From an uncultured Thermoleophilia bacterium (GTDB lineage Bacteria; Actinomycetota; Thermoleophilia; UBA2241): a stretch of DNA of 64,000 bases. Positions 5,155 through 59,304 of the stretch are shown here, piece by piece. The DNA lies in NCBI GenBank assembly GCA_963699725.1, contig CAVOVA010000027.1, positions 170,066 to 234,065 of the forward strand, written 5' to 3'. The position numbers and the translations under genes are program-made. Each line of letters opens with the position of its first letter. Positions within the stretch are counted from its first letter, which is position 1. A model generated the notes under the pieces. It did no database searches, had not been told where the DNA came from, and was given only the letters and a program-made list of their open reading frames with translations.

Positions 5155-6633
5155 TCATTCGCGCACCGCCGATGCGAAGCCGGCGATGAGCCTGTCCGCC
5201 GCCGCGGCGACCTCGGGCGGCAGCGGCGGCGCCTCATTCTCGGCAAGCAGCCGGATCGCCTTCTCCCGAGCCCTGGCCGCCAGGTCCGGGCTCCCCGCGG
5301 CCAGCCAGTTCTCACGGCCCTGCCGGTTGAGGATGCTCGGCTGCCAGCGAACGTCGCGCATGTGGCGGCGGGTGTGCTTGCTCCCCATGAAGTGACCGCC
5401 CGGACCAGCCTGAGCGATCGTCTCGACGGCCAGGCTGTCACGATCGACGGGGACGCCGCCGAGCAGGCGCCTGTTCATGGCGATGAACTCATCGACGACC
5501 ACGATCTCCTCCAGGGAGCAGGTCAACCCGAAGTCGAGATACCCGACGTCGTGGGCCAGGTTGGAGCCGGCCTGCATGGCAAGGAACGTGATCTGTGTGG
5601 CCTCCATGCCGGCCTGGGCGTCGAGCACGTGGCTGTCGCTCGTGCCGGCGTTGCCCCAGTTGGGGATGTCGAGCCACTTGGCCATCTCCACGGCGCACAT
5701 GTAGCCGGTCAGGTAGCCCAGATCGTTGTAGCTAGACTGGGCGGTCGCGATGTCGAGGACGGCGGAGCCGATGCCGAAGAGGAACGGGGCGCCGGGGCTG
5801 CGCAACTGATGCATCACCAGGCCGAACAGACATTCGGCCACTCCCTGGGCGGTGTGGCCCGCGACCGTGATCGGCGCCGTTGCGCCGGCGAGCGGCGCCG
5901 GCGAGTAGATGGACGGCACGCCCGTATCGGCGCACAGCAGGAGCTTCTCGATGCTGTCGACCGGATGGATGAGCGGGCTGATCGGTTCGTTGTAGACGAC
6001 GAAGTACGGCTTCCGGCGCAGTTGCCCGGCCCCGCCGCGAAGCTCGCGGGCGATGTCGATCATCACTCCGAGATCGCTGCCGTTCTCGGCCGTCATGACC
6101 AGCGGCTTGGTGCTGCTCTCCATCATCGCCTGGAAGCTCAGCAGGTACGCCTGGTGGGGGTCCTTGTCGGTGGGATGAGCCGAGCTCATGATGAAGTCCA
6201 GGTTCGGGAGCGCGTCGCAGAGGCGGGCGGCGCGACGGACGTCCTCGAGCACGCTCGGCCGGTGTTCACCGGTTTCGAGATCGTACGTGGACATGAGGTC
6301 CGACCCGGTGCCGAAGTAGCTGTTGTAGCCTCCGAGCTCCATGGCCAGCCCCCCGGTGCGGTCGTACACGTCGACCACGGAGGGCACGGAGAGACGCGCC
6401 TGCTCGACGAGGTGGCGCGGCAGCTGCACCCGGTCATCCGCGGTCAGCGTGCAACCGGCCTCCAGAAGCATGGCCTTCGCCTCGTCGTGATGAACCTGCA
6501 TCCCGACCTTGCCGAGGATGTCGAGCGCGGCCACGTAGATGTCGCGCTTGCCGGCCTCGGTCAGGAACTGAAGGCGGCCGACCTGCGATGCATTCCTGAG
6601 ATCCTTCACGCCCTGTTCTCCCGTCTGGCTCAT
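5155..6633 (-). CDS. MttB-superfamily methyltransferase (non-pyrrolysine) #1
   Basis: YFGTGS, LCDALPNLDF, EPISPL, GATAPITVAG, D.QAG.E, HDVGYL; ATG 6633 after GGAGGGG. Confidence 0.9.
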   Translation of the reverse strand: MSQTGEQGVKDLRNASQVGRLQFLTEAGKRDIYVAALDILGKVGMQVHHDEAKAMLLEAGCTLTADDRVQLPRHLVEQARLSVPSVVDVYDRTGGLAMELGGYNSYFGTGSDLMSTYDLETGEHRPSVLEDVRRAARLCDALPNLDFIMSSAHPTDKDPHQAYLLSFQAMMESSTKPLVMTAENGSDLGVMIDIARELRGGAGQLRRKPYFVVYNEPISPLIHPVDSIEKLLLCADTGVPSIYSPAPLAGATAPITVAGHTAQGVAECLFGLVMHQLRSPGAPFLFGIGSAVLDIATAQSSYNDLGYLTGYMCAVEMAKWLDIPNWGNAGTSDSHVLDAQAGMEATQITFLAMQAGSNLAHDVGYLDFGLTCSLEEIVVVDEFIAMNRRLLGGVPVDRDSLAVETIAQAGPGGHFMGSKHTRRHMRDVRWQPSILNRQGRENWLAAGSPDLAARAREKAIRLLAENEAPPLPPEVAAAADRLIAGFASAVRE

Positions 6634-6667
6634 CGCCCCTCCGGTCGCGGCGCGCGATCTGGGCCGG

Positions 6668-7774
6668 TCACGCCGAGGGTCGCGGCTCGAGCGAGCGCAG
6701 GCGCTCGAGGAAGAAGTCCATCTCCTCGCGGGTGCCCATGCTGACACGGGCCCACCCAGGGCAGCCGAGCCCGTTGCCGTCGCGCACGATGACCCCCATG
6801 GCCATCAGCGCTTCGCACACCCTCTCCTGCGGCACGCGCAAGCCCTCGATGGAGACGAGCACGAAGTTCGTCTGGCTCGGCACCACCTTGCGGCCCATGC
6901 TCACGAGAGCGTTCTGCAGGTACTCACGCGTCTCGATGACCATTTGGCGTCGCTCGAGCACCTGATCCTGGTGCTTGAGCGCTTCCAGCGCCGCGACCTG
7001 CGCCAGCCGATTGACGTTGAACGGCTGGCGCACCTTGTCGAGCGCATCTCTGACCGCCGCCGGGCACACCCCATACGCGACGCGGAGGCCGGCGAGACCG
7101 TAGACCTTCGAGAACGTGCGGAACACGCAGACATTGGGCTTCTCGGCCTGGATCTTCAGGGTGTCCTGCCAGTCGCCGGCGGCAACGAACTCGTTGTAGG
7201 CCTCGTCGATCACCACGAGGACGTCTTCGGGCAGCCTGTCGATGAAGCTCGCGATCTCGGCCGCCGGCAGGTAATTTCCGGTCGGGTTGTTGGGATTGCA
7301 GACGATGACCAGCTTGGTGCGTGAAGTGACTGCGGCGGCCATCGCGTCGAGATCGTGGCCGAAATCGGGCAGCAGCGGGATCATGACGGCCCTGGCGTCA
7401 CGTCGGGCGCAGATGCCCTCGTACAGCATGAACGACGGATCGGCGAAGACGACTTCGTCGCCGTGGTCGAGCAGCGTGTCGCCGAGGAGCTCGAGCAGGT
7501 CGTCCATGCCGTTGCCCACGGCGATCTCCTCGATGGGCCGCCCAAAGCGGTCGGCGAGCGCGTGGCGCAGGTCCAGACAGTCGCCGTCGGGATACCGGTT
7601 CACCTCATCGAACGCGGCTGCCACGGCCGCCCTCACCTCGGCGAACGGCGGTAGCGGGAACTCGTTGGAGGCGAGCTTGACCACCTCTTCCAGCCCGTAC
7701 TCACGCATGACGTTCTCGATCGGGGTGCCGGGGGCGTAGGGCTCGATGCCCTCGATGGCCGGGAGGAATCTCAT
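6668..7774 (-). CDS. hisC: Histidinol-phosphate/aromatic aminotransferase (HisC-like)
   Basis: KLASNE, RYPD, CNPNNPTG, DEAY, RTFSKVYGLAGLR. Confidence 0.82.
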   Translation of the reverse strand: MRFLPAIEGIEPYAPGTPIENVMREYGLEEVVKLASNEFPLPPFAEVRAAVAAAFDEVNRYPDGDCLDLRHALADRFGRPIEEIAVGNGMDDLLELLGDTLLDHGDEVVFADPSFMLYEGICARRDARAVMIPLLPDFGHDLDAMAAAVTSRTKLVIVCNPNNPTGNYLPAAEIASFIDRLPEDVLVVIDEAYNEFVAAGDWQDTLKIQAEKPNVCVFRTFSKVYGLAGLRVAYGVCPAAVRDALDKVRQPFNVNRLAQVAALEALKHQDQVLERRQMVIETREYLQNALVSMGRKVVPSQTNFVLVSIEGLRVPQERVCEALMAMGVIVRDGNGLGCPGWARVSMGTREEMDFFLERLRSLEPRPSA

Positions 7775-12624: not shown

Positions 12625-12795
12625 CAGGTTCCTCCGCCGATGTGGAGTGGCCCGCCCACGATACGCAGACGCGACTCTGAGGTGCAAGCCGATGGACGGC
12701 CTGTCCCGGGACATGGACGGCAAGCCGGACGCCGGAGCGTGGGGCCCGCCGTCGGGTACACTGAGTGCGCCACGCTCACGCCTCGGAGGAACCAC

Positions 12796-14205
12796 ATGAC
12801 CGACTATCCGCTGCGCGCCGCCGCGCTGGACGAAGACGGGTGCGCCGCGCTGCACGATGCCACGCTTCAACTCCTCGAGCACACCGGTGTCGAGGTCCAG
12901 CACGATGAAGCGCTGGCGCTGCTCGAGAAGGCCGGCGCGCGAGTGGACGGCGCCCGCGTCAGGATGCCGCGCGCGCTCGTGGACGACGCGCTCTTCGCCG
13001 CGCCCCGGAACGTCGCGCTCGCCTCCCGCGCAGATGATGACGGGATCGCCCTGGAGAGCGGCCGGACCTACTACGGTACGGGCTCCGACTGCCTGTACGC
13101 CCTGGGACCGGACCGCCGTGACCGGCGCCCGGTCTCGCTCGACGACGTCGAGGAGATGGCGGCGTTGCAGCAGAAGCTGGATTCCATCGACTTCGTCATG
13201 TCCATGGCGCACCCGCACGAGCTGGACGCCGAGTTCGCCCCGGTCGCACAGTTCGCGGCCATGCTGCGCGGCACCACGAAGCCGCTGATCATGGTCCCTG
13301 AGGCGGGCACCGACATCGCCCTGTTCAAAGAGATGGCCGCCGCCTGCGGCGGCGCGGACAGCTGGGCCGTGTACGCCATGCCGACGCCGCCGCTCGTCCA
13401 CGGTCGCCACTCAGCTGAGCGTCTCCTGCGCTGCGCGGAGCAGGACGTCCCGATGGTCTACGCGGGAGCGTACCTGCAGGGCGCCACCGCCCCGGCGTCC
13501 CGCGCCGGCTGCCTCCTGCTCACCAACGTCGAGATGCTGAGCGGTCTCGTCATCGCCGAGCTCGCCAAGCCGGGCGCGCCGTTCGTGTACGGCGTGACGC
13601 AGGGAGCGATGAACGCACGTTCCGCCCACGTGCTGTACTGCGCGCCGGAGGCGATGGCGGACCAGCAGGCCTCCGCCGATCTCGCCGCCTGGTACGACCT
13701 GCCGACCTTCGGCTACGGCGGCTGCTCGGACTCCCTCATGCTGGACGAGCAGTGGGCGTTCGAGGCCGGGATGACACTGATCACCGCGGCGCTCTCGGGC
13801 GTGACCCTGCTGCACGACCTCGGCTACGTGGCCTCCGGCACCGCCTCCTCCTACGAATCGGTCGTGCTCATGGACGAGCTCGTCCGCTGGGTGAAGGCGT
13901 ACCTCCGGGGCGTGACCGTCGACGAGACGGCCCTCGCCGCGGCGGAGATCGCCGAGGTCGGGCCGGGGGGGACCCACCTGGCGCGCAAGTACACGCGGCG
14001 GCACGTGCGCGACTATCTGCAGCCGGACCTGGTCTCCCAGGACCAGTACGACGGCTGGGCGGCCGCCGGCAGCACCTCGCTGCTCGAGCGCGCGGCCGCG
14101 CGGTCGCGCGAATTGCGCGAGGGCGAGCGCGCCTACGCGCCGGCGCCGGACGCGCTGCGCGAGCTCGACACGCTCGTCGAGCGGGCGCGCGCCGGCGGAG
14201 TCTGA
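12796..14205 (+). CDS. MttB-superfamily methyltransferase (non-Pyl) #2
   Basis: YYGTGSDC, IDFVMSM, GATAPAS, LLHDLGY; ATG 12796 after GGAGGA. Confidence 0.9.
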   Translation: MTDYPLRAAALDEDGCAALHDATLQLLEHTGVEVQHDEALALLEKAGARVDGARVRMPRALVDDALFAAPRNVALASRADDDGIALESGRTYYGTGSDCLYALGPDRRDRRPVSLDDVEEMAALQQKLDSIDFVMSMAHPHELDAEFAPVAQFAAMLRGTTKPLIMVPEAGTDIALFKEMAAACGGADSWAVYAMPTPPLVHGRHSAERLLRCAEQDVPMVYAGAYLQGATAPASRAGCLLLTNVEMLSGLVIAELAKPGAPFVYGVTQGAMNARSAHVLYCAPEAMADQQASADLAAWYDLPTFGYGGCSDSLMLDEQWAFEAGMTLITAALSGVTLLHDLGYVASGTASSYESVVLMDELVRWVKAYLRGVTVDETALAAAEIAEVGPGGTHLARKYTRRHVRDYLQPDLVSQDQYDGWAAAGSTSLLERAAARSRELREGERAYAPAPDALRELDTLVERARAGGV

Positions 14206-15473: not shown

Positions 15474-16877
15474 TCAGGTCCGGCAGTACGTGTCGAGCTG
15501 GCGCCGGGTCACGGCGTCGAGGTCGTCCGGCGGCTCGTGCGCGGCCAGCAACTCGGGGACGCGGCGGGCGGCGACAGCGACGGCGTCCTCGCCGCCCGCC
15601 GCGCGCCAGCGCTCGAAGGGCCCGGGAGCGTAGAGCGGCGCGCGCTCGAAGTCCCGCGCGTGCCGCCGCGTGTGCGCCTGGCCGAGGTAGCCGCCGCCGG
15701 GGCCGACGGCCGCGATCACGCCTTCCGCCAGCTCGTCCTCGCCCACCGGTACGGCGGCGAGCGTTGCGCGCAACGCCTCGACGAGCTCGGCGTCGATCAC
15801 GTACTTCTCGAGTGAGAGTGCGTTGAGCGAGCTCAGCATGCCGGCGGCCTGGAAGAGGAAGTGGCCTCCGGCGAGCGCCGCGGCCGAGAGCCCAGCCGCA
15901 GACTCGGCCATGGCCTGGGCGTCCACGGCGTGAGCATCGGTGGCGGCCGCACCGGCGCGCACTGGGAGCCCGCAGCGACGTGCGAGGCCGGCCGTCGCAC
16001 CGGCCAGGCGGGCGAACTCCGGCGTGCCGAAGTGCGCCGCCCCCGTTCGCAACGAGGCCATGGCCGAGATGCCGCCGTACACGAAGGGGGAACCCTCTCG
16101 CGCCGCTTGGGCGAGCACGAGCGAGGCAAGCACCTCCGCGTGCTGGACCACGAGCACACCGCCGAGCGTGGCGGGCCCGCTGGTGCCGCCCATCACGCAC
16201 GCGGTGACGCACGTGGGCTGGCCGAGCCGCGCCCAGCGCATGAGGATCCTCGCCGTCTCGCCCGAGATCTGCAGCGGAGAGGTCGTGTTGAGGATGATGA
16301 GGGCGCGCGGCCGTTCGTGCCAGGCCGCGCCGAAAAGGATCTCGTTGATGCGCTCCGCGTCGTCGATGTCTGCGTCGACGCTCGCGACCCACTCGATCGC
16401 CTTGTCGCTCGCGATGAGGCGAGCGTGTGTGCCACGCCGCGTCCTGACCTCCTCGGGGAGGTCAAGAGGCTCCATGCAGTCGCTGTTGAAGTCGATCGCC
16501 GGCAGCTGGTGGCCAAGACGGGCCGTCGCCTCCAGATCGGCAAGCGTGCCTGGGCGCATGATGCGACCCTCGATCACGTAGGCAGCGCCCGACCCCGAGG
16601 CGAAGACGCGGCCGCCGGCGCCGCCGAGCGGCAGTCCGAGCTCGGGACGGCGACCGGCAAGCACGAACGAAGAGGGCGCGGCGGCCAGCGCCGCCTGCAC
16701 CGCGCCGGCTTCCAGGTAGACGCGCCGGCCGTCGCAGCGGGCGCCGCGAGAGCGGAGCAGGGCGACGGCCTCGTCGTCCTGGACGAGTACGCCGGTCGTC
16801 TCGAGCACGCGGAGCGCGCTCTCATGGACCGCGGCGACCGAGGCCGCATCCGGGAACTCCGTACCTCCCACGCTCAT
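15474..16877 (-). CDS. MttB-superfamily methyltransferase (non-Pyl) #3
   Basis: NTTSPL, GGTSGPATLGG, FGTPE, DAQA..ES, VGPGG.YL. Confidence 0.87.
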   Translation of the reverse strand: MSVGGTEFPDAASVAAVHESALRVLETTGVLVQDDEAVALLRSRGARCDGRRVYLEAGAVQAALAAAPSSFVLAGRRPELGLPLGGAGGRVFASGSGAAYVIEGRIMRPGTLADLEATARLGHQLPAIDFNSDCMEPLDLPEEVRTRRGTHARLIASDKAIEWVASVDADIDDAERINEILFGAAWHERPRALIILNTTSPLQISGETARILMRWARLGQPTCVTACVMGGTSGPATLGGVLVVQHAEVLASLVLAQAAREGSPFVYGGISAMASLRTGAAHFGTPEFARLAGATAGLARRCGLPVRAGAAATDAHAVDAQAMAESAAGLSAAALAGGHFLFQAAGMLSSLNALSLEKYVIDAELVEALRATLAAVPVGEDELAEGVIAAVGPGGGYLGQAHTRRHARDFERAPLYAPGPFERWRAAGGEDAVAVAARRVPELLAAHEPPDDLDAVTRRQLDTYCRT

Positions 16878-16879
16878 CG

Positions 16880-43030: not shown

Positions 43031-43234
43031 GTGTACGCATCCGGCACCACGGGTGGTGCCGGATGCGGTGCCGGCAGAGGCGCCAACCCTGTCACCGACA
43101 CCATGGCCCCGCGGCGCAAAGGCCTGGAGGTCCAGCTGCAGCCCTGACGGTGCGCGTGGGTGCGGCGGTGGCCGGAGCTGCCCGTCCCGCGCAGACCACG
43201 GGCAACGCGCCCCGGTGAGGTGCGCGCGCCGCCG

Positions 43235-44155
43235 TCACGTCAGCGGCTCCACAAGCGGCTCCGCCTCGCCCTTGCCGAAGACGATCACGAGGATGCCGGC
43301 GGCCACGATGAGGGCGCCGCCGGCGTATGTCGTCCACGGCGGCTTCTCGCCGATGAGCAGAAACGCCCACAGCGGCGACGTGACCGGCTCCAGGTACCCG
43401 ATGATGCCGGCGTGCTCCACGCGCACGAAGCGGATGCCGTCCGTGAAGAGACTGAAGCAGAGCGCCGTGTAGATCAGGCCGCTGATCACGACGATCCACA
43501 CGTCAGTCGCCGTCAGCCGGTAGTCGGTGGTCAGCGTCTCCCAGACGGCGAGCGGCGTGAGCAGCACCACGCTGCCAAGACAGAAGAACAGCGCGAACGT
43601 CGAGCCGCGCACGCCCGTTCCCATGCTCTTGATGAGCATCATCGCCGTCGCGAACATCAGCCCCGCGAGCAGCCCGAAGATGACGCCGGGGATGCTCGTG
43701 GCGCCCTCGCCGAGGGCCAGTCCGGGCAGGACGAGGAGCGCCATGCCGCCGACGGCGATGGCCACCGCGACGAGGTCCATGCCCTGGCGCCGTGTACGCA
43801 GCAGCCACGGCGCCAGGAGCGCCACCCAGACCGGCGCCATGTACTCGAGCGAGACTCCGACGGTGACGTTGGCCAAGCGGACGGAGGCGAAGTAGAAGAC
43901 CAGCTCGAGCGCGACGACGAGGCCCACTACGACCATCCGGCGGAAGTGCCCCGAGCTGCGGACCTCCTGCACTCCGCCCGTCGCCAGGAAGAGGATCCCG
44001 AGGGCGATCCCGGCCAGCGCCATTCGCAGGACGATCAGCAGCCCGGCCGGCATCGTGGCAATCTGGATGGTCGTCGCCGAGGTGCCGAGGATCAGCGACG
44101 CGACGCCGATCTCGGCGTAGCCGCGAAGCCGCCGATCAGGGCGGGGTGCGCTCAA
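43235..44155 (-). CDS. EamA/DMT family transporter (1st)
   Basis: VRVEHAGIIGYLEPV; TTG start at 44155 after GAGGGGGG preferred over GTG 44188. Confidence 0.85.
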   Translation of the reverse strand: MSAPRPDRRLRGYAEIGVASLILGTSATTIQIATMPAGLLIVLRMALAGIALGILFLATGGVQEVRSSGHFRRMVVVGLVVALELVFYFASVRLANVTVGVSLEYMAPVWVALLAPWLLRTRRQGMDLVAVAIAVGGMALLVLPGLALGEGATSIPGVIFGLLAGLMFATAMMLIKSMGTGVRGSTFALFFCLGSVVLLTPLAVWETLTTDYRLTATDVWIVVISGLIYTALCFSLFTDGIRFVRVEHAGIIGYLEPVTSPLWAFLLIGEKPPWTTYAGGALIVAAGILVIVFGKGEAEPLVEPLT

Positions 44156-48905: not shown

Positions 48906-50338
48906 CTTCTGCTCCCCTCTGCCTCGGCAAGCACAGCCTGCAGCCGGTCGCGGATCGAGTCTTCAAGTGCGAACGCGCGCGGCTCGTCGCGCAGCTCCTG
49001 CGTGCGCGCGGCCACGCGCTCCCTGAGCGTGGTCGCCCCGGCGGCGGCCCAGCGGTCGTGCGTCGCGCGGTCGAAGAGGCGCGGCGCCCACGTCTCGCGG
49101 TGGTGCTGACGCGTGTAGCCCCGGCCAAGGTGACTGCCGCCTGGACCGACGGCGTCGATCTCATTGAGCGCCAGCGCCTCGTCGTCGACGCCCACCTCGA
49201 CCAGCAGCGCGCGGGCATAGCTCACCAGCTCGTCACCGAGGACCACCGTCTGGTAGCTGCTCTGCATGCCGCTCTCGAGGTAGCCGACGTCGTGGAGCAG
49301 CGTGGCGCGGCTGAGCGCGCCGAGCACCGCCGTGATGCCGGCCTCGGCGGCCCACTGCTCGTCGAACGTCTTGGCGTCGGCGACGGCGGCGTAGGCGAAG
49401 CTCGGCAGCCCGTAGAAGCGGGCCAGGTCCGTTGCCGCGGCGTTGCCGAGGAAGTGCTCGGGCGCGCCGTACACGTCGACGGCGGTGCGCATGTCGAACG
49501 CACCGCAGCCGACACCGTACACAAAGGGCGCCCCTGGCCGTGTCAGCTGGTGGACGACCAGGCCGCTCAGCGTCTCGGCGTTGCCGATCACGATGGTCGC
49601 GGTCATCGAGGCCGGCGCCGTGGTGCCGGCGGCCGGCGCCGGCGCGTAGATCAGCGGGACATCGAGCTCGGCGCAGGCGCAGACCTTGTCGAGCGCCTCG
49701 TCGCTGTGGATCAACGGCGGGTTGGGCATCGCGTAGCAGCCGAAGCTGCGCGCCTCGCCGCACATGGCGGCCATGTCCTTCATGCGGCGCAGGGACACGG
49801 CGTCGTGCGCCGTCGTCAGCAGCGGCTTGCGCGTGCCGGCCAGCATGGCGGCGAACTGGGCCAGGTCGCCGATCTCCGCCGCCACGTCGCTCGGCAGTCC
49901 CATGCTCATGACGAAGTCGAGGTTGGGGAGCTTCTCCGCGAGTGCGGCCATTCCCTCGACGTCGGCGGTCGTGCTCCGCCGGCGCTCGCCGCTGTCGGGG
50001 TCGGTGACGTAGACGCAATCCGACCCCGTGCCGAAGTAGCTGTTACCGTCCTCGAGTTCGAGACCGCCGAGCTCACCGCGGCGCGCGTGGCCCTCGCCGC
50101 CGGACGCGCCGCGCTCCCTGAGCTTGAAGTGGCGCGGCGCGCTCTGCAGGGCGGCGTCGACCAGTGTGGCCGGGATGCGGGCGCGCGTCCCTTCGACGCA
50201 CGCGCCAGCCTGCGCCAGTTGCTCGCGGGCGCGGGCGTGACGGACCTCCACGCCGGTCTCCTCGAGCAGCGCGAGTGTCGCCTCGTGGACGCGCCAGCAG
50301 GCGGCGTCGTCCCACACGGTGAGGCGGGCGGCGGGCAT
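48902..50338 (-). CDS. MttB-superfamily methyltransferase (non-Pyl) #6
   Basis: YFGTGSDC, LDFVMSMGLP, GTTAPAS, LLHDVGYLE. Confidence 0.9.
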   Translation of the reverse strand: MPAARLTVWDDAACWRVHEATLALLEETGVEVRHARAREQLAQAGACVEGTRARIPATLVDAALQSAPRHFKLRERGASGGEGHARRGELGGLELEDGNSYFGTGSDCVYVTDPDSGERRRSTTADVEGMAALAEKLPNLDFVMSMGLPSDVAAEIGDLAQFAAMLAGTRKPLLTTAHDAVSLRRMKDMAAMCGEARSFGCYAMPNPPLIHSDEALDKVCACAELDVPLIYAPAPAAGTTAPASMTATIVIGNAETLSGLVVHQLTRPGAPFVYGVGCGAFDMRTAVDVYGAPEHFLGNAAATDLARFYGLPSFAYAAVADAKTFDEQWAAEAGITAVLGALSRATLLHDVGYLESGMQSSYQTVVLGDELVSYARALLVEVGVDDEALALNEIDAVGPGGSHLGRGYTRQHHRETWAPRLFDRATHDRWAAAGATTLRERVAARTQELRDEPRAFALEDSIRDRLQAVLAEAEGSRR

Positions 50339-50400: not shown

Positions 50401-51867
50401 TCAGGCCCCCGCCAGCTCCTTGTCGGCGCGCGCGACGATCGCGCGCAGCTCGTTTGCGACGTCCTCCGAGAGCGGCTCGGGCTGATAGCTCGCCAGGATG
50501 TCGTCGGCGATCTCCGTGGCCTTCTCCAAGGCGCCCTTCTTGCCCTCCCGCAGCCAGTTGTCGTACGGCGTGCGGTCCCACACGGTCGGGCGCCAGATCT
50601 CCTTCATGTGCTGCCGGGTGTGCTTCTGGGCGAGGTAGGTGCCGTTCGGCCCGACCTTCTTGATCAGGTCGAGCGCCAGCGTCTCGTCATCGACCACGAT
50701 GCCGCCGGCAACCTTCTGGATGATGCCGTAGATCTCGATCTCCATCACCATGTGCGGGTAGCTGAGGATCTTGGAGCCGTTGAGCAGGCCGGCGCCGTTC
50801 ATCATATCGGCGCTGGTCATCACACTGGCGAAGGTGCTGAGCGAGTCGTCGATCGCGGCCTGCCAGTCGGGCTCCTTGGCCCCGGTGGCCATGGTGCCCA
50901 TCGCCATCGGCACGCCGTAGAAGTGAGCGAGCTGGGTGGACGCGCCTGCAAGGAGGTAGTCCTCGGGCGAGCCGCCGGTGTACCCGCCGGTCTTGAGGTC
51001 GATCACGCTCGGAGCGCCGGCGAAGAAGGCCGGCACGCCCGGGTAGGCCAGCTCGAGGAGGACGACGCCGCTGAGCGCCTCGGCGTTCTGGACGACGAGA
51101 TTGCCGGCCAGCGTCGCCGGGCCGGTCCCGGCCGCGAGCGGCATAGGCATGAAGCCGCTGGCCAGCCCATGCTCGGCGGCTACGAGGTTGGCCTCGAGGT
51201 TGGGACCGTCGTGCGCCAGCGGGTCCACTGCACACTGCATGAAGCTGAGTATCGGACGCTCGCGCAACGCATCCGTTCCGCCGGCGATCGTGGCCGCCAT
51301 CTCGACCAGGTAGCGGGCGGGCTTCTCGCCGACCGTGGTCACCGTCTGGAAGTGCTTGCTGGTGTTGGTGAACACGGCCTCGGCGTCGTGCAGCGCCTTG
51401 GTCGCGGGAGGAACGTCCTGACTGGTGACCACAGGGCCCCAGTAATAGCTGATGCTGGGCAGCGCGTCGACGAAGCGAGCGCTGGTCGCCGCGTCGGCCT
51501 TGGTACTCGGCCGCTTCTCGCCCTTCTTGTGGTCCCAGACGAAGACGCCGGAGCCGTCGTTGCTGAGGTAGCTGTGCTTGCCGTCGACGAGCATGTCGCA
51601 GGCGGGGTCGCGGCCGGCGAGCACGTAGCTGTCCGGCACCTGCGAGACGGCCTCCATGACGACCGCGCGAGGGAGCTTGGCGACCTGCGTCGCGCGGTCG
51701 ATCTCACACCCGTTCTGCTCGAGGACGTCGAGGGCGCGTTCGCTCGGGAACCGGATGCCGACCGTCTCGAGGACGTCGAGCGTGGCCTCGTGAATGCGCT
51801 CGAGCTCGCTTGGGTTGAGCACGTCCCACCTGAGACGGGGGGCGATGGGATTGATTCGGGTGGTCAT
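50401..51867 (-). CDS. MttB-superfamily methyltransferase (non-Pyl) #7
   Basis: NTSKH, GTGPATLAG, DL.TG, EPDWQA, VGP.G.YL. Confidence 0.9.
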   Translation of the reverse strand: MTTRINPIAPRLRWDVLNPSELERIHEATLDVLETVGIRFPSERALDVLEQNGCEIDRATQVAKLPRAVVMEAVSQVPDSYVLAGRDPACDMLVDGKHSYLSNDGSGVFVWDHKKGEKRPSTKADAATSARFVDALPSISYYWGPVVTSQDVPPATKALHDAEAVFTNTSKHFQTVTTVGEKPARYLVEMAATIAGGTDALRERPILSFMQCAVDPLAHDGPNLEANLVAAEHGLASGFMPMPLAAGTGPATLAGNLVVQNAEALSGVVLLELAYPGVPAFFAGAPSVIDLKTGGYTGGSPEDYLLAGASTQLAHFYGVPMAMGTMATGAKEPDWQAAIDDSLSTFASVMTSADMMNGAGLLNGSKILSYPHMVMEIEIYGIIQKVAGGIVVDDETLALDLIKKVGPNGTYLAQKHTRQHMKEIWRPTVWDRTPYDNWLREGKKGALEKATEIADDILASYQPEPLSEDVANELRAIVARADKELAGA

Positions 51868-52150: not shown

Positions 52151-52732
52151 TCAGCTCGGGTCGAGGCCGAGCCGCTCGGCCATCGAGCGCCCGAGCGCCC
52201 GGGCCTGGGCCATGAGCTCCGCGTCATCCGCCGCCGACCCGGGCTTGTCGGCACACCCGCCGAGGGCCACCACGGGCAGCTCTTCGGGGTTCGACAGCGC
52301 CACGAAGCGGCGCATGGCCGCCAAGGTGTCGTCCGCGCTGGACTCCGCGGCGACGGCGATCAGGCCCACGACTTTCGGGGCCAGCCACTCCTCGTGGTAG
52401 TAGCGGGTGGCGTTGCGGTCCATGAACGTCTTCATCTGCCCCGAGACGTTCTCGTAGTAGATCGGCGTCGCAAGGATGAGGCCGTCGGCCGCGTACACTT
52501 GCTCGAGGACGCCGGGCATGTCGTCGTCGTGGGGGCAGGACTGCCGCTCGCCGCAGTTCTCGTGGCCGTCGCAGGCGTTGATGCGCACCTCGGAGAGCAC
52601 GATCCGCGTGCAGTCGCAGCCGCTGAGCTGGAGCTCCTCGAGGGCGGCGTCGACCAAGGTCGCGGTATTGCCGCCTCGCCTGGGGCTGCCGATCACGGCG
52701 ACGACCTTCAGACGGGCTTCAGGAGCGCTCAT
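52151..52732 (-). CDS. Iron-sulfur flavoprotein / flavodoxin family
   Basis: GSPRRGGNT, C..H..C.....C...DDM, TP.Y...VSGQMK.F.DR; RBS GGAGG. Confidence 0.85.
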   Translation of the reverse strand: MSAPEARLKVVAVIGSPRRGGNTATLVDAALEELQLSGCDCTRIVLSEVRINACDGHENCGERQSCPHDDDMPGVLEQVYAADGLILATPIYYENVSGQMKTFMDRNATRYYHEEWLAPKVVGLIAVAAESSADDTLAAMRRFVALSNPEELPVVALGGCADKPGSAADDAELMAQARALGRSMAERLGLDPS

Positions 52733-52782: not shown

Positions 52783-54195
52783 CTAGTCTGTCAGACCGGC
52801 GTGATCGCGAAAGCGCTGGACGCAGTTTATCGGCAGGTCGAGCAGCTCCGCGATCCTGAACTTGGCCTCCATGGCGCTGGACTGGGTGGGGTAGCTGATC
52901 TCGAAGGTCGTGATGCGCCCCAGCTGCCGCTCCCTGCGCACGTCTTCCATTGCGATGGGGTCGGAGAGATCGAAGGGACTGACTCCGAGACGCTCTGCAA
53001 CGTACGCCTTGGCATCGCCGATCCGCATCCCCCGAGTGATCTGCATGCGCGCCACCAGATCTCCAGCAGCGCGCATCCCGCACATCCCCGAGGCGGTCGC
53101 GTGGGCACACGGCATCCCGAGAGGGTCGCCGCCGCCGACCTACAAGCCGTCCAGCCGCAGGATGTCGACGGTGGCTCGCGAGGCGCGCGCGACCGCATCC
53201 AGCGGCAGGTAGCTGGTGATGGGGACGGCGCCGACGCCCATGCCGATGTTCATGTGCACGGGGATCTCGGCCACTTCCATGCACGGCTTGACCACCGTCA
53301 GCGCGCGCGCGATGTTCCACGCCCCCGAGCGGCGCGTGTTCACGGTGACGGCCGGCCCGTAGATGGTCGCTCCTGCCCGGCGAACGAGCTCCATCTGCCC
53401 ACGGGGCCAGAGGCCGGCCAGGCGTACGCCGTCGTACTCGAGCCGGCCGTGCATCCCGAGGACGAACTCGCCGGCCATGCCGACCTGGATGCCCATGTCG
53501 GGGTGGGCCGCCCGGATCCGCTCGATGGCGAGAAGGGTGGCCAGGAAATCGCCGTCTCCGGCGGCGCCGGCGGTGTCGAAATCGATGCCGTCGGCGCCGG
53601 CCTCCCACAAGGCGTCGGCGGTCTTCACCATGTCCTCGACAGCGTGCCCTACCGCCTCTTCCTGGGCCGCCCGCGCCTCGTCCACGCGCGCCAGCGGGAG
53701 CAGCTCCGACCAGTTGGGCGCCGGACCGTCGGGCCTCGAGTACAGCCCCAGGTTGGGCATCGCCCCGTACATCACCGGCACCGTCAGGACCGCCTGCGCG
53801 TCTTTCATGCTCTGGGCTTCGAACGGCAGGATCGTCCGGATGGCCTTGAACGAGTAGTCGACGTGCCCGAGCTCCACAGAGTCGGCGCCGAACATCTGCT
53901 CGTAGATGAGCAGGTCCTGGGTGCGCGTCCCGACCGTCTTGGAGCCGGAGCCGTCGTACGTGAGCACGACCTCGTCGCCGATGTCGACGGCGGAGAACTT
54001 GGCCGGCGACGCCCAGATCTCCAGGAGGTGATCGAGCTCGTCCTCGGCCAGCGGCGGCACCTTGGCTCGGCCCGCGGCCGCCAGGGTGCCCTCCTCGAGC
54101 TCGGCGCGGAGCTCGCTCCGGGTCATCCGCGTGAGCGAACCATCGCCCATGCGGGTGGGGTAGTGCGTCTCCATCTTGCGGCTCTCCCTCGTCAC
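52783..54195 (-). CDS. mtbB: Dimethylamine:corrinoid methyltransferase with in-frame amber (pyrrolysine) at 53140-53142
   Basis: TRMGDG N-terminus, GAMPNLGLY..PDGP, FDT.GAAGDGD; ...LRLDGL[TAG]VGGGDPLGMP..H..ASGM.G.RAAGDLVARMQ continues in frame to 52783. Confidence 0.9.
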
Positions 54196-55631
54196 TGGGT
54201 AGTAGCGCCCGCGGCGCGCGCGTAGCGCTCGAACGTGCCGCGCGCCTCGCGGCGGGCATCGTCGGGAATCGGTGTGGGCACGTGCGCGGCGAGCACGGCT
54301 TCGGCGCGCTCCAGCGCGTCGCTCACGAGAGACCGCCCAGCGAACTCGGACAGGCTCCCGCGCTGGAAGACCGACGGACGCCAGATCTCGCCGCGGCGTG
54401 AGCCCTCGCGGGAGCTCCGCCGACCGAGGAAGTGGCCTCCGGGGCCTACCGCGGCGATGTCGTCGAGCAGCGTCGACGCGTCGTCCACCGCCGGCAACCG
54501 GAGGAGCCGGCGCAGGGACCCGATGGTGTCACAGTCGAGCATGACCTTGGCGGTCGAGATGGCCTGGACCGAGTCCACGAGCCCGACGGCCACGAGCATG
54601 TCGGCCCCGGCGAGGACGGTCGCCATTCCGGTGATGGCGCCCTCGGCGCCGGCCTGGAAGTTGGCCGCCTTGGCATCCGAACTGATCCCCGAGCCCATGC
54701 TGGGGAGCCCGAGGTGCTTGCTCATGGAGAGGCACACCATGTCGAGCAGCGCGACCTCCGGGGCCCCGCACAGGTAGCCGCCGGTGCGCAGGTCGGTCGC
54801 GCCACCGGTGGCTGCGACCGTCAACGCGCAGCCGGGCACCGCGGTCTGGAAGATGACGATCCCGGCGAGGAACTCCGCGATCCCGGTCACGGCCGAGCCC
54901 AGGATGCTCATCGGACTGGTCGATCCCATCAGCGGCAGCGGATGGACGTTGATCGACACCCCATGACGCGCCAGCTCGATCGCGGCGTCGAGCTTGTCGC
55001 TCTCGAACTGCAGCGGCGACACGGGGCAGTGCAGGGAGGAGTAGATGGGTCGCTCGGAGAGCGGCGCGCCCGCGATGGCCTCGAGCATCTCCAGCAGTGG
55101 CGGCACCTGCTCCGGCGAGTGCGCGACGATGCTCTGGACGTGCTTCGAGGTCGACTCCAGGGCGATCAGGTCGGTCTCGAGGCCGCCCGTGAGATCGTCG
55201 AAGCGGGGGTTCGTGAGCGTTGTCCAGACGAAGTCGATCTCGGACAGGGCGTCGAAGAGGCCGAAGTAGTACTCGAGATCGGCTTGGGTGGCCCCGCGCA
55301 CCTCGCCGGTCGCGTCGTCCATGACCATCGTCGCCATGCCGTCGGTGGTGCAGGCGAGCGGCGAGCCGTCGCCGACGACGAGGTCGCGCGCCGGGTCGCG
55401 CCCGGCCATGCGGATCTGGCGCGGCGTCTGTGCGAGGCAGCTCTCCACAAGCGCCGGCGGAAGCTTGGCGACCCGGCGCTCCCGGTGGACCTCCGCCCCC
55501 GCCGCGGCGAGCAGGCGAAGGACGCTCTCCGAGCCGACACCCACGCCAATGTGCTCGAGGACGTGCAGCACGCGCTGGTACAGCGCGTCCTTCTCGGCCG
55601 CCGAGAGGCAGTCGACCCGCGGCGCGGTCAC
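54192..55631 (-). CDS. MttB-superfamily methyltransferase (non-Pyl) #8
   Basis: TSKH, CPVSPL, GSTSP, GAPE, SSDAK...QAG.E; GTGA overlaps at both ends. Confidence 0.88.
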   Translation of the reverse strand: MTAPRVDCLSAAEKDALYQRVLHVLEHIGVGVGSESVLRLLAAAGAEVHRERRVAKLPPALVESCLAQTPRQIRMAGRDPARDLVVGDGSPLACTTDGMATMVMDDATGEVRGATQADLEYYFGLFDALSEIDFVWTTLTNPRFDDLTGGLETDLIALESTSKHVQSIVAHSPEQVPPLLEMLEAIAGAPLSERPIYSSLHCPVSPLQFESDKLDAAIELARHGVSINVHPLPLMGSTSPMSILGSAVTGIAEFLAGIVIFQTAVPGCALTVAATGGATDLRTGGYLCGAPEVALLDMVCLSMSKHLGLPSMGSGISSDAKAANFQAGAEGAITGMATVLAGADMLVAVGLVDSVQAISTAKVMLDCDTIGSLRRLLRLPAVDDASTLLDDIAAVGPGGHFLGRRSSREGSRRGEIWRPSVFQRGSLSEFAGRSLVSDALERAEAVLAAHVPTPIPDDARREARGTFERYARAAGATTQ

Positions 55632-57100
55632 TCCCGCGCCGCCGCGTCGCGGTCCGCCGCGTCGACGATGGCGCGGATCTCGCGCACCACGTCGTCCGGC
55701 AGCGGCTCCGGCATGTGCGTGGCGAGAATGCGGCGCGCCTCCTCCAGCGAGCGCTGATGCAGATCCTTGCCGCCCGCGGCGGCCCAGTCCTCTCGCACCC
55801 TGCGGTCGATCAGCTTGGGCTGGGACTGACAGCGCATGAACTTGAGCGTGGAGTCCAGGCTGAGGAAGTCCCCGAAGGGGCCCACCTGAGCGATGTCGTC
55901 CACGCCGAGCAACTCGTCGTCCATCGGGACGCCCCCGACCGCGTGCTTGATCATCCGAGCGAACTCGTTGTCCATGACGAGCTGGCCGAAATCGAACGCG
56001 ACACCCGACTCGATCATCCCCGCGCCGTAGATCAGGTTGGCACCTGCCAACGCCGGCAGCAGCGCGGTCAGCGTCTTCTCGTGACCGGTCTGAGCGTCGA
56101 AGAGCTTGGAGTCGCCCTACAACCCGGCGACGTAGCTCGGCAGGCGATACCGCCGCGCGATGGCGGCGACGGCGGCGCTGATCACGCCGCACTCCGGCGA
56201 GCCGACAGAGGCGGCGGCGAGGCGCAGGTCCATGGCCGTCGTCGAGCTGCCGTAGAGCACCGGAGCGCCGGGACTGGCGAGCTGCGCGAGCGTGATCCCG
56301 GCCAGCACCTCGGCGTTGTGGACGACGAGGGTGCCGGCGAGGTTGACGGGGGCCGACCCGCCCGACATCGCCATCGAGAGGACCAGACAGGGTACGCCGG
56401 CCCGGGCGGCCGAGACGATGGCCTCGGAACACTCCTTCGGCAGCCGCAGCGGGCTGACGGGGCAGACGCCGATCATCACGATCGGGCGCCGCCGCAAGGC
56501 CTCCCGGCCGCCCACCGCGGCGGCGGCGATGTCGAGGATCACCTCCGTCTCCCACCTGGAGAGTGGACCGGCGCAGATGTGCTTGGAGGTGTTGAGCACC
56601 GCCGCCTCGTAGCTGTGGATCGTCGCCGTCGCGGTGGGCATGTCGTGGGCTCCGACGGCGATCTCGTAGGCGTCCAGCTCATCCAGGTAGTCGGCCAGTC
56701 GCGCGGTGTCGGCGACGTCCTGCTTGGTCGGCTCGCGCATCTCGCCGGTCTCGAGGTCGGCGATCTTCAGGCCCTCGCCGAACGTGGTGAAGCCGACGCG
56801 ACCGGCGTCGAGCATGATGTCGTCCCTGGGGCTGCGGCCGGCGGCGAAGACGCGCTCCGGTGACGAATCGATGGCCGCCTCGACCAGCCGGGGCGGGATC
56901 CTCACTACGCCGGTCGCACGATCGACGATCGCGCCCCCGGCCTCGAAGATGTCCGTCGCCTCACGGTCGTCGGAGAACACGCCGGTCTGCTCGAGGACCT
57001 CCAACGTGGCGAGGTGCAGGTCCCTGAACTCGTCCTCGGTGAAGGCATTCAGGCTGAAGCCTCCACTGCGCGTTCGCCCTGAATGGGCACGTCGTTTCAA
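55628..57100 (-). CDS. mttB: Trimethylamine:corrinoid methyltransferase with in-frame amber (pyrrolysine) at 56117-56119
   Basis: ...LPSYVAGL[TAG]GDSKLFDAQTGHEKTLTALLPALAGANLIYGAGM... continuous frame; TTG start after GGAGGAGG. Confidence 0.92.
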
Positions 57101-57187: not shown

Positions 57188-57865
57188 ATGGCCCGATCGA
57201 GACCGACAACCAGGCCGGCGACGAGCGCCGGACCGCGTCCCAACAAGCGTCAGCTGAGCGCTGCCGCGTCGAAGGAGAAGCTGATCGAGGCCACGATCCT
57301 CTGCATGGCCAACTACGGCCCCGCCGGCGTATCGATAGAGAAGATCACCGACGCCGCCGGGGTCTCCCGGGGTCTCGTCCGGCACCACTTCGGCAGCAAG
57401 CGGCGGCTCCTCCTCGAGGCGTTCCAGCGGCTGGCCGACGAGCAGCGGACGGCGTTCGGCGGCGACCTGGCCACGGACGGCGATCCGACGGCGGCGCTGC
57501 GCGCCGCCGTCGCCACGTCGTTCCGCGATGAGCTGGCGGCGCCCGAGCGCTCCCATGCGTGGTTCGGGTTCTGGCAGGCGGCTCTCGGGGACCCGGACCT
57601 GAGAGAGATCAACGAGCGCGTCTACGCGGAGGAGCGCGAGCGGTACAGCGAGCTGTTCAGCGAGGCGGCGCGGCAACAAGGCCTGGACATCGATTCCCGC
57701 GAGGCCGGGACCGGGCTCGTCGCCCTGGCCGACGGGGCCTGGAGCGAGCTGCTGATGGCGGCGGCGGACTTCAGCGTCGACGACGCGCTCGCGCTCTGCG
57801 ACCACTACATCGACATGATCCTGGAGCGGGGCCGCGCGGACCGGGGGCGACCCGCGGGCACCTAG
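57188..57865 (+). CDS. TetR family regulator, BetI-like
   Basis: LI.AT..., I...AGVS.GLV.HHFGSK HTH; W..FW..A and DG.W typical of BetI-type C-domain; divergent from Pyl-mttB. Confidence 0.85.
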   Translation: MARSRPTTRPATSAGPRPNKRQLSAAASKEKLIEATILCMANYGPAGVSIEKITDAAGVSRGLVRHHFGSKRRLLLEAFQRLADEQRTAFGGDLATDGDPTAALRAAVATSFRDELAAPERSHAWFGFWQAALGDPDLREINERVYAEERERYSELFSEAARQQGLDIDSREAGTGLVALADGAWSELLMAAADFSVDDALALCDHYIDMILERGRADRGRPAGT

Positions 57866-57891
57866 GTCGTCCCGGCGCGGGCGCCTGCCGG

Positions 57892-59304
57892 TCAGACTCC
57901 CGGCCGCCCGACCTCCACCTCCGCGAGGATCCGATCGAGGCCGGCCTTCACGTCGTCGGGCAGCTCGAAGGCGCGCGGCGGGGAGCGCAGCTCGGAGACC
58001 CGCGCCCGCAGGCGGTCGAGCAGCGTCTGCGATCCATCGGTCTCCCATGCGTCGTGACGGGTCGTGTCGAAGAGGTCGCTCTGCCAGATCTGGCGGAAGT
58101 GCCCGCGCGTGTAGGTCCGGGCCAGGTGACTTCCGCCCGGCCCCACCGCCTTGATCTCGGCCAGCGCCAGCGCCTCATCGTCCACGGCCAGCGGCGCCAT
58201 GAACGCCTTCGCCCAGCCGAGCAGGTGGTCGCCGAGGACGATCGACTCGTAGCTGCTCTGGAGGCCGCACTCGAGGTAGCCGACGTCGTGCAGCAGCGTC
58301 CCTCGCGAGAGCTTGCCGAGTATCGCCGTGAGCGCGGTCTCGGCGCTCCACTGTTCGTCCAGCACCTTGCTGTCCGTATGCGCCGCGTAGGCGAAGCTGG
58401 GAAGGTCATACCAGCGCGCGAGGTCGGTCTGGGCCTGATGGCCGCGGAAGACGTCGGCGGACGAGTACACCTCGTTCATCGTACGCATGTTCATGGCGCC
58501 GACGCCGACGCCCCAGACGAAGGGCGCGCCGGGCCTCGCGGCCTGGCTGAGCACGAGCCCGGCGAGCACCTCGGCGTTGGCAATCACGATCACCGAAGCG
58601 ATGCTCGCCGGCGCCGTGGTGCCGGCGTTCGGCGCCGGCGCCCAGATGAGCGGGACGCCGAGCCCGGCGCAGGCGACGACCTTGCTGGCGCCGTCCTCGT
58701 CGAAGAGCAACGGCGGCACCGGCATCGCGTAGATGGCGAAGCTGTCGGCCTCGCCGGCCAGCGCCGCCATCTCCTGCATCCTGCCGAGGACGTGGCCGTC
58801 ACGCGGGGCGACGAGGAGGGGCTTGCGCGTGCCGCGCAGCATGGCGTCGACCTGGACGAGGTCGTCGATCGCCTGTGGGGCGTCCTCGGGCAGGCCCATG
58901 CTCATCACGAAGTCGATGTTGGGCAGTACCTCGCAGAGCGCGGCCATGCCCTCGACGTCGGCGCGGCGCACGCGGCGGCGCTCGCCGCTCTCGGGATCGC
59001 GCACGTAGAGGCAGTCCGAGCCGGTGCCGCAGTAGCTGTGGGCGGCGTCGAGCACGAGCGGCTCGGAGTCGCCGCCGCGCGGCTTGATGGTCCAGTCGCG
59101 CGGCGCGGTCTCGAGGGCGGCCTCGACCAGCCCGGCGGGGATGCGCACGCGCGTCCCGTCCACCTGAGCGCCGGCCTTGGCGAAGAGCTCGGCGGCGGGC
59201 GCGTACCTGACCTCGATGCCGGTCTCGGCGAGCACCTCCAAGGTCGCCTCGTGGACGCGCCGGCAGGCGTCCTCGTCCCAGATCGTCAGGCGAGCTGCGT
59301 TCAT
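57892..59304 (-). CDS. MttB-superfamily methyltransferase (non-Pyl) #10
   Basis: Close paralog of #6: ARLT.WD..AC.RVHEATL, GTGSDC, LLHDVGYLE; RBS AAGGAGG. Confidence 0.9.
   Translation of the reverse strand: MNAARLTIWDEDACRRVHEATLEVLAETGIEVRYAPAAELFAKAGAQVDGTRVRIPAGLVEAALETAPRDWTIKPRGGDSEPLVLDAAHSYCGTGSDCLYVRDPESGERRRVRRADVEGMAALCEVLPNIDFVMSMGLPEDAPQAIDDLVQVDAMLRGTRKPLLVAPRDGHVLGRMQEMAALAGEADSFAIYAMPVPPLLFDEDGASKVVACAGLGVPLIWAPAPNAGTTAPASIASVIVIANAEVLAGLVLSQAARPGAPFVWGVGVGAMNMRTMNEVYSSADVFRGHQAQTDLARWYDLPSFAYAAHTDSKVLDEQWSAETALTAILGKLSRGTLLHDVGYLECGLQSSYESIVLGDHLLGWAKAFMAPLAVDDEALALAEIKAVGPGGSHLARTYTRGHFRQIWQSDLFDTTRHDAWETDGSQTLLDRLRARVSELRSPPRAFELPDDVKAGLDRILAEVEVGRPGV

Follow-up and report, generated by a model that had tools for sequence, protein, structure and literature searches.

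A 54-kb Cluster of Ten Divergent MttB-Superfamily Genes, One of Them a Predicted Pyrrolysine-Containing mttB, in a Thermoleophilia Bacterium

Ten MttB-Superfamily Genes Lie Within 54 kb

We analyzed a stretch of 64,000 nucleotides (the window) from an uncultured Thermoleophilia bacterium (GenBank assembly GCA_963699725.1, contig CAVOVA010000027.1, positions 170,066 to 234,065 of the forward strand), which has a G+C content of ~70% and carries a dense cluster of genes of the MttB superfamily, the family of the trimethylamine (TMA) methyltransferase MttB. The PF06253 (MTTB) profile gave exactly ten matches in the window, each above the curated cut-off of 25 bits (159–346 bits). The ten genes, numbered 1 to 10 (W1 to W10), span positions 5155–59391; nine are on the minus strand and W2 alone is on the plus strand. 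These matches bear out a first-pass annotation, made from the letters of the DNA, which had counted ten MttB paralogs in 54 kb.

The genome as a whole (a metagenome-assembled genome, MAG, of 3.24 Mb, 87% complete) has 49 PF06253 matches, 44 of them full length and 8 with a single in-frame TAG. When all 49 were aligned with MAFFT, the eight in-frame TAGs shared one column, which we call the pyrrolysine (Pyl) column. In the list below, gene limits were set by the profile matches and by start codons close to them, bit scores refer to the NCBIfam model TIGR02369 unless stated otherwise, and ω is dN/dS against the orthologues of congeners, that is, of other genomes of the genus.

5155..6633, minus strand: MttB-family gene W1; Thr at the Pyl column; clade A; 335 bits; ω 0.16
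12739..14205, plus strand: MttB-family gene W2; Cys at the Pyl column; clade B; 303 bits; ω 0.16
15474..16877, minus strand: MttB-family gene W3; Ala at the Pyl column; keeps the Arg equivalent to R312 of MtgB
16880..18328, minus strand: MttB-family gene W4; Thr at the Pyl column; directly upstream of W3; 352 bits
47502..48905, minus strand: MttB-family gene W5; Arg at the Pyl column; degenerate; Pfam score 159 bits; ω 0.32
48902..50338, minus strand: MttB-family gene W6; Val at the Pyl column; clade B; ω 0.12
50401..51867, minus strand: MttB-family gene W7; Ala at the Pyl column; 458 bits; ω 0.11
54192..55631, minus strand: MttB-family gene W8; Ser at the Pyl column; between Pyl-MttB and Pyl-MtbB
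55628..57100, minus strand: mttB proper, W9; in-frame TAG at 56117–56119 as the predicted pyrrolysine codon; 686 bits
57892..59304, minus strand: MttB-family gene W10; His at the Pyl column; clade B; longest open reading frame (ORF) reaches 59391

The start of W10 is probably at 59304 rather than at the longest-ORF start at 59391, because its orthologues are 470 aa long. Ten copies in 54 kb are far above chance: if the 49 matches were evenly spread, only ~0.8 would be expected in such a length, and the Poisson probability of ten is of the order of 1e-8. The clustering extends further, as a 160-kb stretch of the same contig holds 23 of the 49 matches, and the window is its densest part.

W9 Is a Predicted Pyrrolysine-Containing mttB in a Methylamine Operon

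Could the in-frame TAG of W9 be read as pyrrolysine? When read through the TAG, W9 scored 686 bits against TIGR02369, for which the equivalog cut-off is 525, and it was the only gene of the window to pass. It also aligned over its full length to Methanosarcina barkeri MttB (structure 7XCL; 418 bits), and in the HMMER alignment, its TAG fell on the X (Pyl) of that protein. Furthermore, ARAGORN found one tRNA-Pyl(CUA) in the genome; pylB, pylC and pylD, each above its NCBIfam cut-off, lie directly upstream of it, and pylSn and pylSc are encoded on the same contig (C1). The best explanation is that W9 encodes a genuine trimethylamine methyltransferase, the UAG of which would be read as pyrrolysine. 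The genes that accompany W9, together with a second regulator, are the following:

52151..52696, minus strand: NADPH-dependent FMN reductase (PF03358), at the W7-side end of the inserted mtbB–W8–W9 block
52783..54195, minus strand: mtbB, dimethylamine methyltransferase; in-frame TAG at 53140–53142; PF09505 matched in two pieces
57305..57865, plus strand: BetI-type TetR regulator between W9 and W10 (TetR_N and TetR_C_6)
59607..60380, minus strand: second BetI-type TetR regulator, identified by its profile domains

Read through its own TAG, mtbB scored 458 bits against TIGR02368 (cut-off 369). GTGA start/stop overlaps join W9 to W8 and W8 to mtbB, and the arrangement is best explained if W9 is co-transcribed and translationally coupled with W8 and the Pyl-dependent mtbB. 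The adjacency of mtbB and W8 was found in 11 of the 11 congener loci that carry both, and the BetI-type regulator at 57305..57865 is likewise conserved beside W9/W8 in congeners. In at least 10 congeners, W10 directly abuts W7, and the block intervenes only here and in a few others; the unit FMN reductase–mtbB–W8–W9–TetR thus behaves as an inserted module.

Pyrrolysine genes are abundant in the rest of the genome, which has eight Pyl-MttB genes, ten MtbB genes (each with one TAG) and one Pyl-MtmB gene; with four non-Pyl MtmB homologues, the MtmB family comes to five genes. We considered whether W8 might replace a missing MtmB and rejected this, given the Pyl-MtmB and its four non-Pyl homologues. 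The Pyl-MttB, MtbB and Pyl-MtmB genes together amount to ~19 pyrrolysine genes in a 3.2-Mb actinobacterial MAG, in which two tRNA-Sec calls indicate that selenocysteine is used too. Of the 49 genes that we called in the window, 9 (mtbB included) end in TAG, so TAG is not avoided as a stop codon despite the decoding of pyrrolysine.

The Other Nine Genes Are Divergent and Free of Pyrrolysine

The remaining nine genes have sense codons at the Pyl column and scored 221–458 bits against TIGR02369, all below the cut-off of 525, with W7 (458 bits) as the highest scorer among them. Pairwise identities among the ten paralogs are 25–60%. In the family tree, W1 and W4 (57% identical) form clade A with two others (support 100), and W2, W6 and W10 (45–60% identical) form clade B with four others (support 99). 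W8 is in a five-member clade (support 100), W9 falls inside the eight-member Pyl clade, W3 stands alone on a long branch, and W5 and W7, which are 35% identical, are in a poorly resolved group (support 86) that we have drawn open. The ten genes thus fall in at least six lineages, and the nine without pyrrolysine fall in at least five besides that of W9. Of the subgroups that the first-pass annotation had proposed, W1/W4 and W2/W6/W10 are solid and W5/W7 is weak.

An NCBIfam scan at E ≤ 1e-10 matched the ten genes with TIGR02369 only and with no substrate-specific subfamily model. In a protein search with W10, all 120 matches listed belonged to its own lineage or to the nearest paralog group and had automatic names only, with no characterized protein among them. 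Public annotation calls the W10 orthologues "trimethylamine--corrinoid protein Co-methyltransferase" despite their His and their failure to pass TIGR02369. Such over-annotation is probably systematic, and automatic annotation as trimethylamine methyltransferase is probably wrong for nine of the ten genes. The TIM-barrel fold was modeled for W5, the most divergent member, and is presumed from sequence for the other nine.

The Residue at the Pyrrolysine Column

Read from W1 to W10, the Pyl column gives T, C, A, T, R, V, A, S, TAG and H. The first-pass annotation had assigned all ten correctly, as judged by the alignment of the 49 matches, and the strings that it had quoted for W1 (IPNWGNAG-T-SDSH) and W9 (LPSYVAGL-O-GDSK) are also correct. 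In HMMER alignments to solved structures, the Thr of W4 falls on the same X (Pyl) of 7XCL as the TAG of W9, and the Ala of W3 and the Val of W6 fall on a Leu of Desulfitobacterium hafniense MtgB (9YCE/2QNE). W1 and W4 share the near-identical motif NWG[NY]AG-T-[ST]D[SA][HQ].

Among the congener orthologues, the residue is kept in most of the ten groups: T in 5/5 for W1, C in 7/7 for W2, T in 10/10 for W4, R in 16/18 for W5, V in 20/20 for W6, A in 22/22 for W7, S in 9/11 for W8, TAG in 5/5 for W9 and H in 17/17 for W10. A deeper set was available for clade B, namely 97 His-bearing sequences with at least 67% identity to W10, of which 27% of the columns are invariant. A neighboring subgroup of clade B (62–64% identity to W10) has Met in 14/14. 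Across clade B, the flanks LPSF[AS]YA[AG]-x-[ST]DSK are constant, and x is H, M, V, N or C depending on the subgroup. Conserved flanks around a residue that switches by subgroup are the usual signature of a specificity-linked position. Because the flanks are conserved while the residue switches by subgroup, the Pyl column looks specificity-linked in clade B.

None of the Nine Genes Carries the Binding Motif of MtgB

For a comparison with what defines known SPECIFICITIES, we used the tested MtgB motif Y97/R312/H348/F356. According to PMC13080624, in which MtgB was mutated and its structure solved with bound substrate, Y97 and F356 of MtgB bind glycine betaine by cation–π contacts, and R312 and H348 hold its carboxylate. 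The same report (2026) describes R312 as conserved in MtcB, MtpB, MtyB and MthB, the substrates of which are all acidic. In our HMMER alignments, the chain index of 2QNE equals the native number plus 16, and the R312 position precedes the Pyl column by five residues.

At the R312 column, W1 to W10 have W, F, R, W, V, F, A, M, Y and F, so that W3 is the only one of the nine non-Pyl genes to keep an equivalent Arg, and this Arg is kept in 7/7 of its full-length orthologues. Among the solved structures, MtgB is also the closest to W3 (247 bits to 9YCE/2QNE vs. 155 bits to 7XCL). Direct alignment at Y97/R312/H348/F356 gave S, R, Q and L for W3, and it gave S, F, H and G for W6. The full motif was found in none of the nine genes, W3 and W6 being aligned directly and the others through an alignment bridged via W9, which is one residue off at Y97 relative to the direct alignment and the Y97 column of which is unreliable. 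As no gene carries all four residues, there is no MtgB among the nine when judged by the tested motif.

A further MttB-family gene lies outside the window, at 101585–102962 of the contig (plus strand), and is split into two ORFs that cover profile positions 31–197 and 202–491. No other paralog in this genome combines Arg, His and Phe at the R312, H348 and F356 columns, and since the split gene keeps all three equivalents, it is the most MtgB-like copy; it appears to be broken or frameshifted.

The Genes Are Conserved Across the Genus and Under Purifying Selection

DNA searches of 40 congeners with both halves of the island returned syntenic loci, from the orthologues of which dN/dS was calculated. 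The median ω is 0.11–0.32 across all ten genes, which indicates purifying selection. The expansion of MttB genes, together with PylS, is genus-wide: 24 of 24 congeners had 15 to ~30 scored matches each (the best 28 candidates being scored) and 23 of them had PylS, whereas 16 genomes from other families of the class had 0–3 matches, and PylS was found in 1 of the 16. Orthologues of W7 with 78–96% identity were found at more than 60 loci, nearly all in records named Thermoleophilia, Actinomycetes or Actinomycetota, with one Deltaproteobacteria record; beyond these, the nearest sequences come from a Desulfovibrio MAG and from a MAG of the Bacillota, both at 54% identity.

The first-pass annotation had named, as an outcome that would speak against its proposal, that most paralogs are unexpressed. 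Three sediment metatranscriptome runs from three studies gave word shares of 0.05–0.06 for the block, and metatranscriptome contigs, from which neither a ranking of genes nor strand, starts or strain identity can be read, covered 30/30 bins of positions 42000–61900, mostly at 90–99% identity. This coverage speaks weakly against the genes being unexpressed. Consistent with expression, a study of peatland at Stordalen Mire reports that Pyl-mttB and mtbB, among other methyltransferase genes, are expressed by Actinobacteriota MAGs (PMC10805028).

The Paralogs Have Separate Gene Neighborhoods

The neighborhoods of the paralogs differ by lineage. W7, W6 and W5 belong to a block on one strand that continues with a lysine 2,3-aminomutase (KamA), a corrinoid reductive activase, an array of transporters, a 140-aa orphan, an aminotransferase and a β-keto acid cleavage-type (BKACE) enzyme:

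46083..47378, minus strand: lysine 2,3-aminomutase of the KamA/AblA type (TIGR03820, 559 bits vs. a cut-off of 525), directly downstream of W5
44236..46023, minus strand: RamA/RACo-type corrinoid reductive activase (Fer2, RACo_linker, Raco_middle and RACo_C_ter)
38371..44155, minus strand: six tandem EamA (DMT-superfamily) transporters, PF00892 in 6/6, 34–56% identical to one another
35723..37847, minus strand: BKACE enzyme (PF05853) and class-III aminotransferase/aminomutase-like gene (PF00202)

W6 and W5 share a GTGA overlap, and KamA–W5–W6–W7 is contiguous in 17 congener loci. The activase gene scored below the cut-offs of the NCBIfam AcsV and RamA models. The BKACE enzyme is closest to the 3-keto-5-aminohexanoate cleavage enzyme of lysine fermentation (NF052387, 346 bits, below the cut-off of 382). 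The EamA array lies in the same strand block as W5–W7, KamA and the activase, and this array of transporters parallels the array of methyltransferases.

The pair W4–W3 is kept in 6 congener loci. W2 adjoins genes for indolepyruvate:ferredoxin oxidoreductase, and IorA is beside it in congeners. In congeners, W1 is accompanied by genes for a class-I/II aminotransferase and for a pyridine-nucleotide-disulfide oxidoreductase.

Interpretation of the Cluster

What might nine pyrrolysine-free relatives of MttB do beside W9? On the best explanation, corrinoid-dependent MT1 enzymes of the MttB superfamily have expanded throughout the lineage, and the window, with the Pyl-MttB W9 and nine divergent non-Pyl members, is where this expansion is densest; we put the probability of this reading at about 0.72. 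The host would be an anaerobic Thermoleophilia bacterium with a Wood–Ljungdahl-type acetyl-CoA synthase, the gene for which is present near a pterin-binding gene. Each of the nine pyrrolysine-free genes is kept as its own orthologue across the genus, and most would probably remove methyl groups from methylated amines that differ from one gene to another. The acceptor would be the Co(I) of corrinoid proteins encoded elsewhere, which may be common to several of the enzymes; the genome has ~13 small corrinoid proteins outside the window, the nearest just beyond both of its edges. The RamA-type activase of the window would re-reduce these proteins, and the methyl group would move on to a pterin carrier, presumably for oxidation or acetyl-CoA synthesis. 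Several MT2 candidates are present in the genome; an MtrH-type methyltransferase, considered as the methyl acceptor, was not found in the 87%-complete assembly.

The first-pass annotation had read the varied residues as a diversified substrate library for N-methyl compounds. The deep divergence, the spread over at least six lineages and the passing of TIGR02369 by W9 alone uphold the diversity that it saw; that the substrates of the nine non-Pyl genes differ is a reasonable inference. It had also considered that all the paralogs might fall in one characterized clade. They do not, as is evident from their divergence, the single TMA-model pass, the absence of the MtgB motif, the selection on each gene and the separate neighborhoods.

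Several points weigh against this interpretation. First, the family tree is a quick maximum-likelihood version built from the 44 full-length paralogs. Second, eight of the nine non-Pyl genes are without the Arg that is reported as conserved in characterized quaternary-amine members (PMC13080624), and these eight enzymes may act on no carboxylated quaternary amines. Third, the eight W3 orthologues vary at the Pyl column (A in 2, C in 2, V in 3 and L in 1), so the specificity pattern fails for the W3 group, in which the column drifts among small hydrophobic residues; a few close relatives of W10 (at least 67% identity) carry Cys (six) or Tyr (two). Because of these two cases, the Pyl column is not a strict determinant. 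The fixation of a residue within the genus is also weak evidence only, because 31–87% of all columns are invariant in these shallow orthologue sets. Fourth, searches of the window with PF02310, PF00809 and PF01208 found no corrinoid protein and no pterin-binding or URO-D-type methyltransferase, and the coupling of MT1 to a corrinoid protein is therefore assumed, since neither a corrinoid protein nor an MT2 is encoded there. Fifth, short assembled contigs, most of them from relatives, make up the RNA evidence, and the libraries may also contain DNA. Lastly, of 36 family-conserved columns, W5 is without 13, more than any other of the 44 paralogs (the others miss at most 7), and one W5 orthologue carries two stop codons.

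Could some of the ten, then, not be enzymes at all? W5 might be a degenerate, non-catalytic partner subunit of the coupled W6 (or of W7), in which case the catalysts would number fewer than ten. In addition to the missed columns, W5 has the lowest Pfam score (159 bits), an aberrant amino-acid make-up and the highest ω of the ten (0.32), and its DNA is 87% identical to that of the closest congener with six gap openings, within a block that is 94% identical as a whole. Ten of its 13 missed columns lie in residues 55–251, and the conserved C-terminal positions are kept. The GTGA overlap with W6, the synteny in 17 loci and a predicted MttB-like barrel suit a retained subunit, and the subunits of MtgB and MttB are described as extending their C-terminus into the cavity of the partner (PMC13080624). 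On the other hand, the predicted fold is intact: the model, folded with orthologues (pLDDT 81, pTM 0.82), has TM-scores of 0.73–0.76 to 7XCL, 2QNE and 9YCE, with 0.76 to 7XCL, and the Arg kept at the Pyl column in 16/18 orthologues suggests a pocket in use. W5 is probably an altered or non-catalytic member; it is divergent, under relaxed constraint and possibly a non-catalytic partner of W6; the full proposal of a degenerate partner subunit and fewer than ten catalysts strikes us as possible rather than likely.

The missing Arg also raises the question of whether the lineages without it (clades A and B, W7 and W8) use methyl donors other than carboxylated quaternary amines; these might be methylated amines of neutral or basic character, or else methylated compounds of sulfur, oxygen or halogens. 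Given that the substrates of the characterized Arg-bearing enzymes described in PMC13080624 are all acidic, this would fit eight of the nine non-Pyl genes, and a gene of the reductive-dehalogenase family follows W2. However, this gene is beside W2 in only a few congeners, the same block holds BetI-type regulators and the Pyl methylamine operon, and all six characterized members are reported to use N-methyl donors (PMC12155760). We consider such a general shift of donor unlikely. The dehalogenase-family gene itself (14260–15429, plus strand, 389 aa) is directly downstream of W2 and scored 182 bits against TIGR02486 (cut-off 160).

A different reading would make the paralogs redundant isozymes for a few common substrates (glycine betaine, choline derivatives or TMA precursors) that differ in regulation or affinity; the Pyl column would then tolerate change and play no part in specificity. 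It draws on the nearly identical motif of W1 and W4, on the variation among W3 orthologues and close W10 relatives, on the two BetI-type regulators in the block, and on D. hafniense MtgB, the Leu of which at the Pyl column does not belong to the four residues that PMC13080624 names for binding. Isozymes would nevertheless hardly be expected to show 25–35% identity between lineages, a distance like that of MttB from MtgB (31%, PMC9842639), nor to be kept separately across the genus with ω of 0.11–0.32 and different neighborhoods; the R312, H348 and F356 equivalents also differ between lineages. Redundancy is quite improbable as the account of the whole cluster.

Highly doubtful is the most specific proposal, that the KamA–W5–W6–W7 block, with the activase, DMT transporters, aminotransferase and BKACE enzyme, forms a complete route for taking up and breaking down a basic lysine-derived methylated amine (which may be N-epsilon-trimethyllysine or beta-lysine betaine), demethylated, possibly stepwise, by the Arg-less homologues before lysine fermentation, with W5 as a non-catalytic partner. 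If true, it would add a new class of substrate to the superfamily, basic and not acidic, and the first heteromeric MttB enzyme.

Comparison with Known Systems and Significance

The lineage-wide expansion that we favor can be set beside several known systems. M. barkeri MttB (7XCL/7XCM/7XCN; TIGR02369) resembles W9 in the full-length match, the TAG on its pyrrolysine (Pyl334), the score above the cut-off and the Pyl-MtbB in the operon. It differs in that the host here is an actinomycetotal bacterium and not a methanogen, with no mttC-type corrinoid gene in cis; the genome has eight Pyl-mttB genes, and the other nine window genes are without pyrrolysine and fall below the cut-off. D. hafniense MtgB (2QNE, 9YCE) shares with the nine genes the superfamily, the fold and the absence of pyrrolysine, with its Leu at the Pyl column, and shares the Arg with W3, but no window gene has its full motif and neither mtgC nor mtgA is present in cis.

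Eubacterium limosum is reported to have 42 non-Pyl MttB members and one corrinoid protein, MtqC, that is common to MtpB, MtcB and MtyB (PMC12155760). Compared by description, its systems (MtpB/MtcB/MtyB with MtqC/MtqA, and MthB/MthC/MthA/MthK) are like the present genome in the large paralog family, the many MT1 enzymes for few corrinoid proteins and the Wood–Ljungdahl pathway; unlike it, E. limosum has no Pyl members, and its characterized enzymes keep the R312 Arg, which eight of the nine genes here are without. For "Candidatus Formimonas warabiya" strain DCMF, 82 MttB-superfamily genes are described, seven of them with pyrrolysine (PMC9768040). This is likewise a bacterial genome with many non-Pyl and several Pyl members, but it is that of a Firmicute of the Peptococcaceae and much larger, whereas here 49 members and 10 Pyl-MtbB genes are found in a 3.2-Mb MAG. 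The Actinobacteriota MAGs of Stordalen Mire (PMC10805028) belong to the same phylum and have the same gene set, and the W7 orthologues include Actinomycetota from palsa, bog and fen; that study, as far as its main account goes, treats presence and expression and not paralog lineages, pocket residues or neighborhoods. A 2022 survey lists PylRS in two Actinobacteria (PMC9630628).

Large MttB expansions (42 and 82 copies) and the expression of Pyl-mttB/mtbB in Actinobacteriota are therefore already published. Our literature search found no paper describing these Thermoleophilia paralog lineages; supplements, which may contain trees, were outside its scope. What the window adds is a ten-gene sample that spans at least six lineages, with eight of nine non-Pyl genes lacking the Arg anchor, a specificity-type pattern at the Pyl column of clade B, and a paralog trio fixed beside lysine 2,3-aminomutase.

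Methane, and in guts TMA, has methylated amines among its major precursors. In this lineage of soil, peat and sediment Thermoleophilia, a 3-Mb genome holds ~50 members of the superfamily and ~19 pyrrolysine genes, and each paralog lineage is kept across dozens of species. For only six members of this very large superfamily is a substrate reported as known (PMC12155760). What makes the locus valuable is its defined set of targets for substrate discovery: two clades without the Arg anchor, a clade with a switching Pyl-equivalent residue and the KamA-linked paralog trio.

Other Features of the Window

Directly downstream of W1, at 1157–4965 (minus strand), are genes for a molybdopterin oxidoreductase, a 4Fe-4S dicluster protein and a pyridine-nucleotide-disulfide oxidoreductase. 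ARAGORN called a 97-nt tRNA-Glu at 38881–38977, inside the first EamA gene, which is probably a false positive.

A gene of the histidine ammonia-lyase (HAL) family lies at 18611–20158 (plus strand), divergent from W4. It passed the HAL subfamily model (527 bits vs. 524) and missed the hutH equivalog (502 vs. 539). We considered whether it might be a TMA-releasing ergothionase and rejected this, as it scored 292 bits to histidine ammonia-lyase vs. 191 to the ergothionase 6S7J and passed the HAL model. The Ala-Ser-Gly triad of HAL forms the MIO cofactor; the gene here has Ala-Cys-Gly where Pseudomonas putida HAL has Ala-Ser-Gly.

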